Source: a virus. From it: DNA of 13,050 nucleotides. Positions 1 through 6,014 of the stretch are shown one piece after another. Position 1 is the stretch's first letter; every line of letters starts with the position of its first letter. The DNA is taken from the UHGV virus genome UHGV-1714330; one strand, given 5' to 3'. The position numbers and the translations under genes are program-made. The notes beneath the pieces are model-generated. The model was not told the origin of the DNA, made no database searches, and saw only the letters and a list, made by a program, of their open reading frames with translations.

Positions 1-303
1 GGGAGGGCAATATTATCAGATCAGAGCGATGCCATACGCAACATCACTGGTGAGTTCATGGCTGTAAACGCCGAAAATTATTCAATATGGGAATCAGTAG
101 GCTCGTTTAAGGGGGCAGTGGTGCCTTTGAATCCCTCAACGAACAATAGTTATTTCTCCTTAATCAGAAGTATGGTGATAGAAAGAACAGATGGCTCTGT
201 TTACCCAAAAGTGATTGGCCTTGATGCTTCAAGAATTGTTCCAACTGCAAACGAAAACCGTCCTCGTAACATTGCCTTTAATTATATCGTGAGGGCTGCC
301 TGA
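1..303 (+). CDS. Alternative tail fiber C-terminal (receptor-binding) segment, 5' end outside the window
   Basis: Frame 1 is open from base 1 to the TGA at 301-303, so the listed 58..303 ORF is only the end of a longer reading frame. The C-terminus (..NIAFNYIVRAA) resembles the ends of phage side tail fibers. The stop overlaps the start of the next gene (TGATG). Confidence 0.55.
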   Translation, partial: GRAILSDQSDAIRNITGEFMAVNAENYSIWESVGSFKGAVVPLNPSTNNSYFSLIRSMVIERTDGSVYPKVIGLDASRIVPTANENRPRNIAFNYIVRAA

Positions 304-905
304 TGAATAAAGCCGTATTAAATAACGAACTCATTGCCATAAAAGCGGGAGACATTACCATTTATAATTATGATGGTGAAACGCGGGAATATATTTCCAC
401 ATCAACTGAATATCTTGCTGTGGGTGTCGGTATTCCGGCATTTTCCTGTCTGGAGGCACCTGGCATATACAAGGCTGGTTATGCAATTTGTCGCTCTGTG
501 GATTTAAATTCATGGAAATATGTGCCAGACCATCGCGGTGAAATCGTCTATAACACCGAAACGGGAGACGCCAAAGAAATCACAGCTCCGGGTGATTACC
601 CCGAAAATACAACCACTATCGCCCCGTTAACGCCATACGATAAATGGGATGGTGAGAAATGGGTGACCGATACTGAGGCACAGCATTGCGCCGCAGTAGA
701 CGCGGCAGAAGCACAGCGCCAGTCACTGATTGATGCTGCAATGGCTTCCATCAGTCTGATTCAGCTGAAATTACAGGCCGGGCGGAGGCTGACGCAGGCA
801 GAAACCACCCGCCTTAACGCCGTGCTGGATTACATTGACGCGGTGACGGCAACAGATACCAGCACCGCGCCGGATGTCATCTGGCCTGAACTGCCGGAGG
901 TGTAG
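303..905 (+). CDS. Tail fiber assembly (chaperone) protein, alternative copy
   Basis: 200-aa ORF directly after a fiber C-terminal segment. Its C-terminus carries the motif DTSTAPDVIWPELP, also found at the end of the convergent tail fiber assembly gene at 877..1320. Confidence 0.7.
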   Translation: MNKAVLNNELIAIKAGDITIYNYDGETREYISTSTEYLAVGVGIPAFSCLEAPGIYKAGYAICRSVDLNSWKYVPDHRGEIVYNTETGDAKEITAPGDYPENTTTIAPLTPYDKWDGEKWVTDTEAQHCAAVDAAEAQRQSLIDAAMASISLIQLKLQAGRRLTQAETTRLNAVLDYIDAVTATDTSTAPDVIWPELPEV

Positions 906-1320
906 GCCATTCAATATCGGGGGCTGTTGATGTATCAACACGCATCAGCAGCACACGGTATTTCTTCCATTGGGTGAGAGTTGAAGTTTCTTCATCAGTT
1001 GCGATACCAGCATCAACAGCATCCTGACGCCAGGATATTTCACTGTCAGCTTTTGCACGAAATGTGGCTTTCATGTTTTCTGCATCTGATATTTTCTGTT
1101 CTGGTGAAAGCGGCGGCTCATCAACCCATGCAAGGGTCCCTGAAACCATTCCCAGCATTTTTCCTGTTGGCTTATTTCCCCCATTAAATCTGACAGCATC
1201 CTCATCGCTGATTTCAATACCATCCTGCGGCCATGTCCCCTCCTTGATATAACTTTCATATAGCGCTGCGTTGTAGATTGCATTTTCGGACGGGCTGTAA
1301 ACACTTTTAATTTTATTCAT
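877..1320 (-). CDS. Tail fiber assembly protein (positional equivalent of P2 gpG)
   Basis: 147-aa ORF immediately after H, preceded by a GGGAGA ribosome-binding site. C-terminal motif VDTSTAPDIEWP. Its 3' end overlaps the convergent tfa copy by 29 nt (877..905). Confidence 0.8.
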   Translation of the reverse strand: MNKIKSVYSPSENAIYNAALYESYIKEGTWPQDGIEISDEDAVRFNGGNKPTGKMLGMVSGTLAWVDEPPLSPEQKISDAENMKATFRAKADSEISWRQDAVDAGIATDEETSTLTQWKKYRVLLMRVDTSTAPDIEWPTPPAVQAR

Positions 1321-1324
1321 TCTG

Positions 1325-2542
1325 TTATCTCCCTTTCGCTATATAGCAAAGATTAAACCCACCGGCGCCTGACATACGGGCTGTAAAACCCGTTCTTGAA
1401 GTACCAGTTGAGTTAACTCCATAAGCAGGCATGGTTGCTGGAGAAAGCAGAGACTCCTGGATATCTGCCATTGTCAGTGTAATTGATTCGACCCGCGCGG
1501 GGAAAGGTAGCGGGAAAACAACATTCGTCCCTGTCTGTCCAACGGGGAAACCGAAAATACCCCATTGTGTAATTACCCCTTCCGGCCCCTTACTCCATCC
1601 AGATTTAGGAATCGGCCAGTCTGCTGCTCCAGAGTGCCCCGTTGTAAAACTACTCATATCTGGTACTTGCCCGGTATCCGTTCCGACGTTCCTCGTTGCC
1701 GCTTCTCCCAAACCAAGGTATGCGAGAAGGCCGGCAACATCCTTTCCGCTCAAATGAGTCAGCGTCTCATCCAGTGGCTGCTTACCTGACAGCGCATTGT
1801 TAATGGTGGTGCTGAATTTCGGGTCATTGTTAATGGCTGCGGCAATTTCTTTCAGTGTGTCCAGCGTGGCTGGCGCACCGTTAATCAGAGCGGTAATAGC
1901 GGCCTGAACAAACGCAGTGGTCGCAATCCGCGTGGTGTTATTTCCTGCGGCAGGCGTCGGCGCTTTTGGTTCTCCGGTAAATGTCGGATTATGTTTCTGT
2001 GCATACTGGGTATGAGGATCCTGTGCGGCAATGTGGTTTCTCATCTGGTCATCCACATACAGCCTTAATTCCAGGACTTCATCATCCACGTATTTACGGG
2101 TCGCCAGTACCACCGACGGGTCGATTTTCAGCGTGATGGCTTCGGTATTCGAGACAACCAGAATCATGCGGATAGTCTGGGTACGACCGCTTCCTTCCTG
2201 CAACTGCGGTTTGTACGTTTCCGGGCAGTTTGCCACCGCAATGAGTACGCCTTCATCATCATAAAGCCCAATCTCACGGATCCAGAATCCGCCCTCGTTC
2301 TCAGGGATGATTTGCTCCGCAATAATCTGGCTCTGGTTGTTCGGGTCAACACTCAGAAGATTCAGCGGCGCGATGCGTTTCTGGTTAATCAGTTTTGTCT
2401 GTGCCGGGTCTGGTGTCGGCAAGACACCATTCGCATCACCAACGGCCATTTGCGTCAGATTCAGCTTACTGCCGAGCATCGTCGCGTTAGCCAGCCGTGC
2501 TGCGCCCTGATTAGTCAGAATGGCGTAGTATTTCACTGTCAT
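1325..2542 (-). CDS. H: Tail fiber protein (P2 gpH-like N-terminal domain, distinct C-terminal domain)
   Basis: 405-aa ORF. The N-terminal region (..TQMAVGDANGVLP.., GGFWIREIGLYDDEGVLIAVAN, EGSGRTQTIRMILVV) resembles P2 H and Mu S-type fiber N-termini. The ATG at 2540-2542 overlaps the gpI stop. Confidence 0.9.
   Translation of the reverse strand: MTVKYYAILTNQGAARLANATMLGSKLNLTQMAVGDANGVLPTPDPAQTKLINQKRIAPLNLLSVDPNNQSQIIAEQIIPENEGGFWIREIGLYDDEGVLIAVANCPETYKPQLQEGSGRTQTIRMILVVSNTEAITLKIDPSVVLATRKYVDDEVLELRLYVDDQMRNHIAAQDPHTQYAQKHNPTFTGEPKAPTPAAGNNTTRIATTAFVQAAITALINGAPATLDTLKEIAAAINNDPKFSTTINNALSGKQPLDETLTHLSGKDVAGLLAYLGLGEAATRNVGTDTGQVPDMSSFTTGHSGAADWPIPKSGWSKGPEGVITQWGIFGFPVGQTGTNVVFPLPFPARVESITLTMADIQESLLSPATMPAYGVNSTGTSRTGFTARMSGAGGFNLCYIAKGR
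1703..1728. other. Candidate serine DNA invertase crossover site (hix/gix/cix-like) inside H
   Basis: TTCTCCCAAACC-AA-GGTATGCGAGAA. The two 12-bp half-sites agree at 10 of 12 positions as an inverted repeat around a central AA. It matches hixL (TTCTTGAAAACCAAGGTTTTTGATAA, quoted from memory) at 18 of 26 positions, including the AAACCAAGGT core. It encodes LLAYLGLGE, about aa 272-280 of H. Confidence 0.5.
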
Positions 2543-3150
2543 GCGTTTACTCTCAGGTTATCAATTAAATGAATGGCCGAGGCCGGGAAATAATCCCCTC
2601 CGACAATAATGGCCTCCGGGGTGTAGGGATAAACCGTCAGGGCGTCGCCGTGATAGCATCCCGCACCGGCAAAAATGTTGCCGGTTGTACTTAAACTGAT
2701 AGCCAGTCCCGTCAGATGGCGGCTTGCCGGTTTTGCATCAGCAACGAGGCGCTCCAGCTCCTGATACATTTCTTCGGTAATACCCTGCTCAAGCACGCCA
2801 ACAACGATACGGAACGTCCCCGGCTCCTCGTTGAGCTGCCACCACTCCCTCACCTCAATCAGATAGCCGAGCGGCTCCACCACACGGCGAATCGCACCAA
2901 TAGTGCCCTTATGGCAGTGAATGAAATACGCATCGCGGATAACAGCGCGTTTTGTCGCTTCCGGCCACTTATCATCCCAGCGGTCAACCGAAAATGACCA
3001 CGCCAGCCACGGCAGCAGATTTGCCGGACAGGTATCCGGGTTCCACAGCTCACGAATACTGACCGGCGTTTTTTCAATTTCCGCACAGGCTTTTGCGGTG
3101 GCGACTTCAAGCGGTGATGAGCCGGTCGGCAGCAGGCGCGAATCACTCAT
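2539..3150 (-). CDS. I: Baseplate assembly protein gpI
   Basis: 203-aa ORF beginning MSDSRLLPTGSSPLEV.., in the position between J and H. A GGAGG ribosome-binding site lies 5 nt upstream. It overlaps the J stop. Confidence 0.85.
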   Translation of the reverse strand: MSDSRLLPTGSSPLEVATAKACAEIEKTPVSIRELWNPDTCPANLLPWLAWSFSVDRWDDKWPEATKRAVIRDAYFIHCHKGTIGAIRRVVEPLGYLIEVREWWQLNEEPGTFRIVVGVLEQGITEEMYQELERLVADAKPASRHLTGLAISLSTTGNIFAGAGCYHGDALTVYPYTPEAIIVGGDYFPASAIHLIDNLRVNA

Positions 3151-4051
3151 CCGAGCCTCCGGTCACGACGCGGTATTCGGTACAGAAAGACGCCTGCGTA
3201 CTGTTGAGCACAATGTCGGCCAGTGGTGCGGCCAGCTCGACACGCTGCACGCCTTCCACATGCAAAGCGGCATAAATGGCAGACAGACGGATGTCGCGCC
3301 CCAGCCGGTGCTGTGCCGTGATGTACGCTTCCAGTTTTTTCACGGCAGCAGCGCGGATGGGTTCGCTTTCGGGACCAGGGTAAAGGTAAAGCGTGGCGTT
3401 TATCTGGTATTCAACAATGGCGGCAGACTGCACGGTCACGCGGTCGGCCACCGGCCTGACGTCCTCGCCATTAAGGGCGTTACGCACCACGGCCAGCAGG
3501 TCTTCGGATGCGACGCCGTTATTTTCACGTGACAGCACGGAGATAGTGACGCAGGCCGGAGACGGACTGGTGACAGAGATATCCGCGACACGCCCGTCGG
3601 CACTGCGACCATGATACTGATAGGCTCCCACCGACCCGGCGACGCTTAAGCCCTCAAACGCCTGCTGAATACGCAGACGATAATCGGTGTCAGACTCCAT
3701 CACTGCCGGTGTCGGCGGGATGGTCGAATCATCTGCCGGGGTGATAATCAGGCGCGTGGTGTTGTAATTGGCACCAATCACATCAAGGTCATTACCGGCG
3801 GCACAGGCCAGCATCACCGCCCGTGCGGCCTCATTCACACGCTGACGCCAGATAAGCTCACGATAAGCATTTTCCTCCAGCAGTTTGACGAGAGGCTCGG
3901 ATTCCAGCGTCAGGGTACGGGCGACCGCCTCCTGCTGGTCTTCCGGGTAAAGGGAAATCAGTGTCGCCTTGCGTTCGGCGAGAATGGTTTCAAAGTCCAG
4001 CTCCTCGACCACATCCGGTGCGGGTAGCTGGTTCAGGTCGATAATCGGCAT
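3143..4051 (-). CDS. J: Baseplate protein gpJ
   Basis: 302-aa ORF, the same length as P2 gpJ as I recall it, in the position between W and I. Confidence 0.9.
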   Translation of the reverse strand: MPIIDLNQLPAPDVVEELDFETILAERKATLISLYPEDQQEAVARTLTLESEPLVKLLEENAYRELIWRQRVNEAARAVMLACAAGNDLDVIGANYNTTRLIITPADDSTIPPTPAVMESDTDYRLRIQQAFEGLSVAGSVGAYQYHGRSADGRVADISVTSPSPACVTISVLSRENNGVASEDLLAVVRNALNGEDVRPVADRVTVQSAAIVEYQINATLYLYPGPESEPIRAAAVKKLEAYITAQHRLGRDIRLSAIYAALHVEGVQRVELAAPLADIVLNSTQASFCTEYRVVTGGSDE

Positions 4052-4403: not shown

Positions 4404-5035
4404 AGAGGCCCCCCTGTTGTGCCGCCACTGTCGCCGGGGTGTTTATGGGTATGCAGTACCTTACCGTTTGATGAGAGTTCACCGCCGGTGTGTTCAATGT
4501 TGCCGCGCATCGTCCCGCCCTTCTGCACTTCCAGCGTGCCGGTAGTCAGTTTGTTAGTGCAGACCACTTCCGGTGTGTCCAGGGTGACACGGGTTGACGC
4601 TTTCACCGTGACCACCGGTACCGTGGCAGTAACAGAATCAGAAGCCGTCACGCTGGCCGTTTTAATTCCGCTTACCGTGAGCGCGCTGGTTTCGGGTTCA
4701 TACTCAATCACCGCCCCGTCAGGGAAACGGATATGCAGGGCATCCGCCGACGCAGACGGCGCGGGGTTATCGCCGGAATAAATCCCCGGCAGAACGAACG
4801 CCGTGTCGAGTTCACCGCCCACGGCCAGAATCAGCACCTGTTCCCCCACGGAAGGTGCCCACCATGTGCGCGAACGTCCGGCGCGATGGGTCAGCCACTG
4901 AAGCCAGTCGGTGCACATGCCGCCGGTCTGCACACGGCAGCGACCGGCGTTAAGGTCGGTTTCGACGACAATGCCGGTGCGTATCATGTTGCGCAGTGCG
5001 CGCGCGAGTTCCTGAATATTTGCGAGAGTGTTCAT
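4400..5035 (-). CDS. V: Baseplate spike protein gpV
   Basis: 211-aa ORF, the same length as P2 gpV as I recall it, first gene after the S-V intergenic spacer. Confidence 0.9.
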   Translation of the reverse strand: MNTLANIQELARALRNMIRTGIVVETDLNAGRCRVQTGGMCTDWLQWLTHRAGRSRTWWAPSVGEQVLILAVGGELDTAFVLPGIYSGDNPAPSASADALHIRFPDGAVIEYEPETSALTVSGIKTASVTASDSVTATVPVVTVKASTRVTLDTPEVVCTNKLTTGTLEVQKGGTMRGNIEHTGGELSSNGKVLHTHKHPGDSGGTTGGPL

Positions 5036-5046
5036 AACGGGAAGGA

Positions 5047-5070
5047 TGCCGCCGGGTCATACCGGCGGCA
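5047..5070. repeat. Perfect 9-bp GC-rich inverted repeat with a 6-nt spacer in the S-V intergenic region
   Basis: TGCCGCCGG-gtcata-CCGGCGGCA, read directly from the sequence. It sits in the 66-bp gap between the S stop (5102) and the V start (5035). Confidence 0.6.
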
Positions 5071-5101
5071 ATGTGACGATGAGGTGTCGGGAATGGCACA
5101 A

Positions 5102-5554
5102 CTAACGGTCGAGGTGCGCCAGAATAATCTCTTCAATCATCTGCACATCCTCACCGGTAAAGCCGAGCAGAGGACGCGCCGGATAATCAATTTTCTTACC
5201 GTCTTTCCGGGTTTCTTCCGACAGACCGAACTGATGCACGCTGGCGATTTTCGGTGACTTTCCGCCGTAAAACTCCATTGATGCCTGTTCCGGGCTGGCG
5301 CGGATATGCAAAAAACGACTGGTGATAAGTTTCGCAAACATTTTTCGCTTAACGCGACCGGTCTTTTTTCTGGCGCTCTGCTGCTGGCGTGGTGCGTAGG
5401 GTGTGCCGTCCGGGGCTTTCTGTGCCATCACCCGGCGCTGCTGACTCTGCCGCAGACGTTTCGCCAGTTCGGCGCTCAGTCGCCGACGCCCTGACGGTGA
5501 CAGCGATTCAATAAGTCCGGCCAGCCGGTCTTCAAAACGCTTAAACTCATTCAT
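5102..5554 (-). CDS. S: Tail completion protein gpS
   Basis: 150-aa ORF, the same length as P2 gpS as I recall it. Its start overlaps the R stop. Confidence 0.9.
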   Translation of the reverse strand: MNEFKRFEDRLAGLIESLSPSGRRRLSAELAKRLRQSQQRRVMAQKAPDGTPYAPRQQQSARKKTGRVKRKMFAKLITSRFLHIRASPEQASMEFYGGKSPKIASVHQFGLSEETRKDGKKIDYPARPLLGFTGEDVQMIEEIILAHLDR

Positions 5555-6014
5555 CCCACTTGCTCACCAGTTCGCCATTGATATAAAGCTCCACCGGGCG
5601 GGTGACCGGCTCCGGCGGCGGAGGTTCCGGGATATTCTTCACATGCAGTGCGCCGTCCACCTCACTGACCAGCGTGCGCTCGGTCAGCATCAGGCTGATG
5701 CTGATATCAAAGCTGCTGTCATTGTTGATGTCTGCATAAAACGTGAAGCCCTTTTTCTGGCCTTCGTCGGTGGTCATGATGTCGGGCTGATTTTCCCGCA
5801 GCCACGCCAGCACCGGCACGATGAGCAGGTCAAAATCACCGGTAAAGTCGGTCACAATGACATTGAGCGTGTAACGCTTTTCAAATGACAGCGACGTCGC
5901 CAGTGTGGAGGCAATACTCCCGTTATCCACGAATATCCGCAGCATCTCGGGGCTGGTTTTCAGCACCGTGACGGCATCAGTCAGCGCCCTGCGCAGGCTG
6001 TCGGGTTTGAGCAT
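5547..6014 (-). CDS. R: Tail completion protein gpR
   Basis: 155-aa ORF, the same length as P2 gpR as I recall it, directly after the lysis cassette. Confidence 0.9.
   Translation of the reverse strand: MLKPDSLRRALTDAVTVLKTSPEMLRIFVDNGSIASTLATSLSFEKRYTLNVIVTDFTGDFDLLIVPVLAWLRENQPDIMTTDEGQKKGFTFYADINNDSSFDISISLMLTERTLVSEVDGALHVKNIPEPPPPEPVTRPVELYINGELVSKWDE

Follow-up and report, generated by a model that had tools for sequence, protein, structure and literature searches.

A putative Gin/Cin/Pin-type crossover site at the constant/variable junction of tail fiber gene H in a P2-like prophage

Gene content of the window and the 26-bp site in H

The window analyzed here is the whole 13,050-bp stretch of DNA, which corresponds to the complete metagenome contig NODE_2614 (ENA assembly ERZ773186) from one sample at ∼3.9x coverage. 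Its genes are late and tail genes of a P2-like (Peduovirus-type) prophage. The minus strand carries H, I, J, W, V, S, R, the lysis genes lysC/lysB/lysA, a holin gene, X, L, M, N, and O; the lysozyme ORF was named from the annotation of relatives, as Pfam gave no match there. The right end of the window cuts through a plus-strand open frame that contains large-terminase domains.

The tail fiber gene H occupies positions 1325-2542 of the minus strand as a 405-aa ORF that combines a P2 tail-collar fiber N-terminal domain with a gp53-like C-terminal domain. Its constant N-terminal part (aa 1-271, 1729..2542, minus strand) would lie outside the proposed invertible segment and includes the Phage_tail_fib collar domain, with Pfam PF12571 matching aa 1-150. 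The variable C-terminal part (aa 281-405, 1325..1702, minus strand), which would lie inside the segment, is in the expressed state in the window, and Pfam PF21882 (gp53-like C-terminal domain) matches aa 320-404 of the protein. Downstream of H on the same strand is the partner of this expressed tip, a tail fiber assembly chaperone of 147 aa (877..1320; Pfam PF02413, Caudo_TAP). A second cassette of the same composition, a variable tip with its own chaperone, lies to the left in the opposite orientation. It begins with the last 100 codons of an alternative, silent fiber tip (1..303, plus strand), which is open to a stop at 301-303 and has its 5′ end cut off by the contig end, and continues with an alternative, TfaE-like tail fiber assembly chaperone of 200 aa (303..905, plus strand; Pfam PF02413), whose homologue is annotated as tfaE in relatives. 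The region containing this chaperone gene (window 253-939) has 88.5% DNA identity to the stfE-tfaE region of the Escherichia coli element e14. The original prediction had pointed to an alternative tip and chaperone pair at the left of the window that could replace the C-terminal part of H and its chaperone, and this was borne out both by the two oppositely oriented cassettes and by the in-frame fusion of the inverted state described below. Window position 1 corresponds to position 6001 of the SC418 locus (L001) and lies inside the alternative cassette, about 195-220 bp short of where the partner site is found in relatives. Because the contig ends inside this cassette, the partner site and the invertase of this element are outside our view.

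Between the two parts of H lies a 26-bp sequence at 1703..1728, TTCTCCCAAACCAAGGTATGCGAGAA in the plus strand reading, which we interpret as a pix/cix-like invertase crossover site. It is composed of an inner half-site at 1703-1714 (TTCTCCCAAACC), a 2-bp core at 1715-1716 (AA), and an outer half-site at 1717-1728 (GGTATGCGAGAA). When the left half, TTCTCCCAAACC, is compared to the reverse complement of the right half, TTCTCGCATACC, 10 of the 12 positions agree. Our reading of the sequence hence confirmed the imperfect palindrome around a central AA that had been described at these positions. The same is true of its predicted place at about aa 272-280 of the 405-aa fiber: the site coincides with codons 272-280 of H, where the coding strand reads CTT CTC GCA TAC CTT GGT TTG GGA GAA and encodes LLAYLGLGE.

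We rejected palindromy as evidence for the site. Two 12+2+12 palindromes with at least 10/12 agreement occur in the window, the second of them at position 3760, and 200 shuffles gave a mean of 0.66 such palindromes and at most 4. The symmetry of the site is at chance level, and the case must therefore rest on other evidence.

Similarity to known crossover sites and the junction in the fiber gene

For comparison, we used sites from loci in which inversion systems are annotated or experimentally known. The window site is identical at 23 of 26 positions to the e14 site in ycfK/stfP (TTCTCCCAAACCAAGGTTTTCGAGAG), at 22 of 26 to the H site of the Salmonella phage Fels-2 (TTCGCCTAAACCGAGGTATGTGAGAA), and at 21 of 26 to P1 cixR as annotated in AF234173 (TTCTCTTAAACCAAGGTATTGGATAA), a record that places the cixR crossover between its two central bases. 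Identity to the gix sites of Mu was lower, at 17-18 of 26 positions. A simple calculation puts the expected number of 23/26 matches to one particular 26-mer at <1e-6 per 26 kb. Furthermore, the inner half-site and core of the window site together (TTCTCCCAAACCAA, 14 bases) are identical to the e14 repeat CCTTCTCCCAAACCAA. This repeat and TTGGTTTGGGAGAAGG are the points at which the e14 P segment inverts, as established by genome sequencing and PCR, and the inversion is driven by PinE, PinQ, or PinR (2025; PMC12529663). The resemblance to the recombination sites of Hin, Gin, Cin, and Pin noted in the original prediction consequently holds, and the window site belongs with the hix/gix/cix/pix family. 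The same 26-mer is also found, with 26/26 identity and in the same place in H, in eight P2-like relatives.

We then located the point at which H changes from conserved to variable. The constant part (1729..2542) has 97-99.9% identity across 570 E. coli genomes and is collinear in relatives in which the segment is flipped. When sequenced P2-like phages are aligned to the window, the match begins at position 1702 and extends to the right only. From the other side, the variable tip and its chaperone occur at 97-99% identity on fibers with unrelated N-termini (L006 and L007), which belong to a non-P2 myovirus prophage at dusA in RM9088 and to a different P2-like prophage in MINF_2E. In these foreign fibers, homology to the window ends inside the site, at positions 1727 and 1719 for RM9088 and MINF_2E, respectively. 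Across all comparisons, the H homology breakpoints fall within 1702-1727. The site had been predicted to mark the join of a conserved N-terminal and a variable C-terminal fiber part, and the breakpoints at 1702 in P2-like phages and at 1719-1727 in the foreign fibers agree with this. The match to known invertase sites and the placement at the mosaic junction of H are far beyond chance.

Partner site, invertase, and orientation of the segment in relatives

We turned to nine P2-like E. coli relatives for the region beyond the contig end: SC418, strain 144, Q65, CPww7, YZ3E2001, HCM-28C-2, phage pro483, the T22 'P2' phage, and MINF_2E. All nine contain an inverted partner site. In eight of them it reads TTCTCCCAAACCAACGTTTA(A/T)GAAAA, with one base changed in MINF_2E, and its inner half-site and core are as in the H site. 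In six of these eight, the partner is identical to the e14 partner (26/26). In the ninth relative, the T22 phage, the partner position is taken by another copy of the H site. For instance, the SC418 partner lies at L001 5780-5805 (TTTTCTTAAACGTTGGTTTGGGAGAA), inverted and with the inner half-site and core in common with the H site. The partner has the start codon of the invertase gene on one side and the silent tip on the other, and it lies outside any expressed fiber gene. A search of the window, L001, and L002 for partner sites with up to 3 mismatches matched only the H copy. Five positions distinguish the partner from the H site, and each of them either belongs to the outer half-site or is the base beside the core; the partner was detected by reading the sequence and by a half-site scan. 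In SC418, the homologue of the tip at 1..303 (L001 5752-6303) has a Collar domain, and its beginning is at the partner site.

All nine relatives have a serine recombinase gene in the stretch that separates the alternative tip from FI, the tail sheath gene, and the 5′ end of the recombinase gene faces the partner site. In seven of these, the gene is intact and encodes, between the partner site and FI, a 197-aa protein with Resolvase and HTH_7 domains. Identity of this invertase to Fin of Fels-2 and to PinE of e14 is 85%, to Cin 78%, and to Gin 77%; its Ser9 residue is conserved, and it matches the Gin crystal structure 3UJ3 with E = 1.6e-94. The remaining two copies are degraded: MINF_2E carries an invertase pseudogene, and the T22 phage a frameshifted gene that lacks the HTH domain. 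On a broader scale, 570 complete E. coli genomes contain the H constant part with the site, and 547 contain the FI end with the invertase and the partner, the two sets being counted separately from each other.

Homology to P1 hints that the 5′ end of the invertase gene may contain an enhancer. Compared to the annotated P1 enhancer (cin nt 19-90), the SC418 invertase gene is identical at 57 of 72 positions, and over nt 91-540 at 306 of 450, a difference that coding constraint could explain. A by-eye search of the invertase gene for the Fis consensus yielded one good match to GNNYRNNWNNYRNNC at nt 71-85 and no convincing second site 48 bp away; because of the latter, we do not claim Fis sites.

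Comparisons between genomes gave evidence that the segment inverts. Between SC418 and Q65, the flanks are collinear with 99.96% and 98.0% identity, and the 1.88-kb segment between the two sites is inverted with 99.1% identity; the alignments overlap by 18 bp at each of the two sites. HCM-28C-2 displays the same relationship to the window itself. Here, window 249-1719 is inverted (97.9% identity) and window 1702-3200 is collinear (98.8% identity), which places the inversion boundary in the overlap of the alignments at 1702-1719. In HCM-28C-2, the gp53-like tip of the window is silent beside the invertase, and H is fused to a collar-type tip. These observations, like the junction counts below, concern differences between genomes and not within one culture. 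Inversion within a culture has been documented by sequencing and PCR in the P2-like prophages of EPEC E2348/69 and in e14 (PMC4272514).

To represent the inverted state of the window, we built a synthetic junction in which the H constant part of the window, up to the core, was joined to the alternative tip of SC418. This junction translates in frame to a proper stop, fusing H aa 1-276 to the alternative tip (...LAYLGLGE|GSALPVG...). The inverted-state junction is contiguous in 48 E. coli genomes, with up to 99.1% identity, and the window-state junction in 4. Inverted-state fusions also occur in relatives as annotated full-length fiber genes.

Proposed inversion, alternative explanations, and comparison to known systems

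Taken together, the similarity of the site to known crossover sites, its position at the junction within H, the partner and invertase of relatives, and the two orientations among genomes support the interpretation of 1703-1728 as an invertase site. Specifically, we propose that it is the H-proximal crossover site of a Gin/Cin/Pin-type invertible tail fiber segment in a P2-like prophage, a reading to which we assign a probability of roughly 0.88. As in relatives, the invertase gene would separate the segment from FI and be located shortly past the left end of the contig, and a partner site of the form TTTTC(A/T)TAAACGTTGGTTTGGGAGAA would be expected beyond window position 1. By analogy to Gin, Hin, and Cin, invertase dimers would bind the site at 1703-1728 and the inverted partner ∼1.87 kb away, and the invertasome would be assembled by Fis from an enhancer located at the 5′ end of the invertase gene. 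Ser9 would then make cuts staggered by 2 bp at the central AA/TT of both sites, and the segment would flip as the subunits rotate. In the state captured by the window, H codons 1-276 run into the gp53-like receptor-binding tip, and the chaperone at 877-1320 comes after it. In the inverted state, the same H N-terminus would be in frame with the collar-domain tip that ends at 1-303, followed by the TfaE-like chaperone at 303-905. A lysogen population may in this way release particles of two adsorption specificities. That the specificity differs between the two orientations is what would be predicted from Mu and P1 and from the unrelated tips, one with a gp53-like C-terminal domain and the other with a Collar domain. 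For this element, four points are inferred, namely the enzymology, the dependence on Fis, a host range that differs between orientations, and an intact invertase.

The last of these bears on the alternative that the switch is a relic or locked, with the invertase lost or inactive here and the fiber fixed unless the Pin-type enzyme of another prophage acts in trans. The invertase region of this element is beyond the contig end, and the degraded genes of MINF_2E and the T22 phage demonstrate that invertases of this group can decay. Canonical P2 provides a further precedent: its H contains a gix-like fossil (TTCCTGTAAACCGAGATATTCGATAA, 23/26 to Mu gix), it has no invertase, and Z/fun takes the position of the invertase module. 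On the other hand, the invertase is full-length and its catalytic motif intact in seven of nine P2-like relatives, the site itself is conserved at 26/26 positions, and both window cassettes are intact ORFs. Moreover, action in trans is documented for PinE, PinQ, PinR, and Fin (PMC12529663), and loss of the gene in cis therefore need not lock the switch. We consider a locked switch unlikely on this evidence.

Trans action also underlies a further reading, in which the role of the switch would go beyond the host range of the phage itself: the segment would be flipped by PinE, PinQ, or PinR, the tip product, expressed by the host, would block the adsorption of other phages as reported for e14 StfE2, and an intact P2-like prophage would serve in addition as an inversion-controlled defense element. 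Flipping in trans by resident Pin enzymes would be possible because the alternative cassette is e14-like (88.5% at the DNA level) and the 14 bases of the inner half-site and core are identical to those of e14. We regard this additional role as rather improbable.

Finally, the sequence could be kept only for the fiber peptide LAYLGLGE, or as a patch of homology for ordinary recombination of fiber modules, which would fit the chance-level palindromy and the fact that homology of otherwise unrelated fibers starts or stops within the 26 bp, as at a homologous-recombination joint; yet we find this highly improbable given that the partner copy lies outside expressed fiber genes beside the invertase, is always inverted, and has the inner half-site and core in common with the H site, that prophages of nearly the same sequence are distinguished by an inversion with clean ends at the two sites, that the identical e14 repeat is an experimentally proven inversion point, and that the shuffling of modules at the site fits, and would be expected under, exchange by an invertase.

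Under the preferred reading of an invertible tail fiber segment, the system is one that is already known; we find no new variant features, and nothing is added on mechanism. For annotation of this prophage, the reading means that H is a gene with two alternative C-termini and that the 'orphan' fiber fragment at the left of the window is a silent cassette and not a pseudogene. It also means that an assembly of the region captures only one of two states and that both fiber tips are to be considered in host-range prediction or phage engineering.

Among the known systems, the P segment of e14 with PinE in E. coli K-12 has the layout in common with the P2-like loci: invertase, silent tip, tfaE, second tfa, and expressed gp53-like tip. 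e14 is a defective element with another baseplate and tail type (YmfQ, gp47/J), whereas the switch in the window lies between H and FI of a P2-type late operon that appears to be complete. The P2-like phage Fels-2 of Salmonella has the same gene order, J-I-H-G-(G′)-(H′)-invertase-FI-FII, including an annotated DNA invertase, and Fin of Fels-2 is described as an active invertase in literature cited in PMC12529663. Fels-2 differs in that the H constant part has only ∼67% DNA identity to the window and in the variant of the core and half-site (TTCGCCTAAACCGA...). In the C segment of P1, which is acted on by Cin, cixR is likewise at the constant/variable junction of the fiber gene, and its inner and outer half-sites have the same polarity as here. 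P1 likewise has two cassettes of variable part and chaperone, and the 5′ end of its invertase gene contains the enhancer. By contrast to the P2-like loci, the P1 segment spans 4.2 kb, its variable parts are much longer, and cin runs towards the segment with its 3′ end overlapping cixL. The G segment of Mu and its invertase Gin follow the same logic; Gin is 77% identical to the invertase of the relatives, and the orientation of the invertase gene with respect to the adjacent site is the same in Mu, e14, and the P2-like relatives. The core of gix is GA/TC, however, and the fiber proteins are different.

Further counterparts to the window are P2-like themselves. A survey of P2-like phages describes an invertase with inverted neighboring genes at the Z/fun hotspot (bioRxiv 10.1101/2024.10.15.618418). 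Phage pro483 and the 'P2' phage of E. coli O157:H43 strain T22 contain the 26/26 site in H, a constant part with ∼99% identity, the same layout, and a gene labeled 'DNA invertase' in GenBank. The variable cassettes of these two phages, like those of the P2-like prophages of EPEC E2348/69, are present in combinations other than that of the window.

Cassette movement between phage types

The variable fiber tip and chaperone of the window are also found in E. coli RM9088, where they lie in a prophage adjoining dusA (L006 4723-7505) and match at ~97.6% over 1.1 kb. When we compared this cassette to that of the window, identity was 99.2% in the part nearest the crossover site. The RM9088 prophage is of a non-P2 type, with YmfQ and gp47-type baseplate genes, and it encodes its own invertase of 187 aa (54% identical). 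Its partner site, the second and inverted crossover site of the segment, is more divergent. Evidently, the crossover site is a point at which cassettes pass from one type of phage to another.

State of the switch in P2-like relatives

The P2-like phage of E. coli O157:H43 T22 (KC618326) carries two crossover sites, at L010 2141-2166 and 4002-4027, and both are identical to the window site at 26/26 positions, including the outer half-site. The reading frame of its invertase (L010 1575-2075) diverges past approximately residue 129 and the HTH domain is absent; we attribute both to a frameshift or a sequencing error. The P2-like prophage of E. coli MINF_2E shares its variable cassette with the window, but the invertase there is a truncated pseudogene (L007 6932-7076); the switch in this prophage is probably locked. 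The closest relative that shares the cassette arrangement of the window is the prophage of E. coli strain 144 (L002 5489-8291), for which frameshifts are annotated in H, the chaperone, and the silent tip. Such frameshifts could reflect real decay, or else misassembly of homopolymer runs.

Canonical P2 (NC_001895) lacks an invertase and has Z/fun at the corresponding locus. Within its gene H, we found a degenerate gix-like site, TTCCTGTAAACCGAGATATTCGATAA (L016 1858-1883), that agrees with the gix site of Mu at 23/26 positions and falls in the codons for IEYLGLQE (H aa 375-382). This site is apparently a fossil of a former invertible segment.

Further features of the window

Position 1 of the window, the left end of the contig, lies inside the invertible segment, ~195 bp short of where the partner site is located in relatives. 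The contig could have broken here due to low coverage (3.9x), because the sample contained both orientations of the segment, or at repeats that it has in common with e14-like elements also present there. A second 12+2+12 palindrome, TGTTGTAATTGGCACCAATCACATCA, occurs within the baseplate J gene (3760-3785) with half-sites that agree at 10/12 positions. Upon comparison with invertase sites it showed no resemblance to them, consistent with a chance palindrome. Lastly, the interval between V and S is only a 66-bp gap in the window (5035-5102). The same interval holds a cargo gene for a hypothetical protein in strain 144 (L002 10868-11611), and genes for a HIT-family protein and a hypothetical protein in MINF_2E (L007 570-1728).
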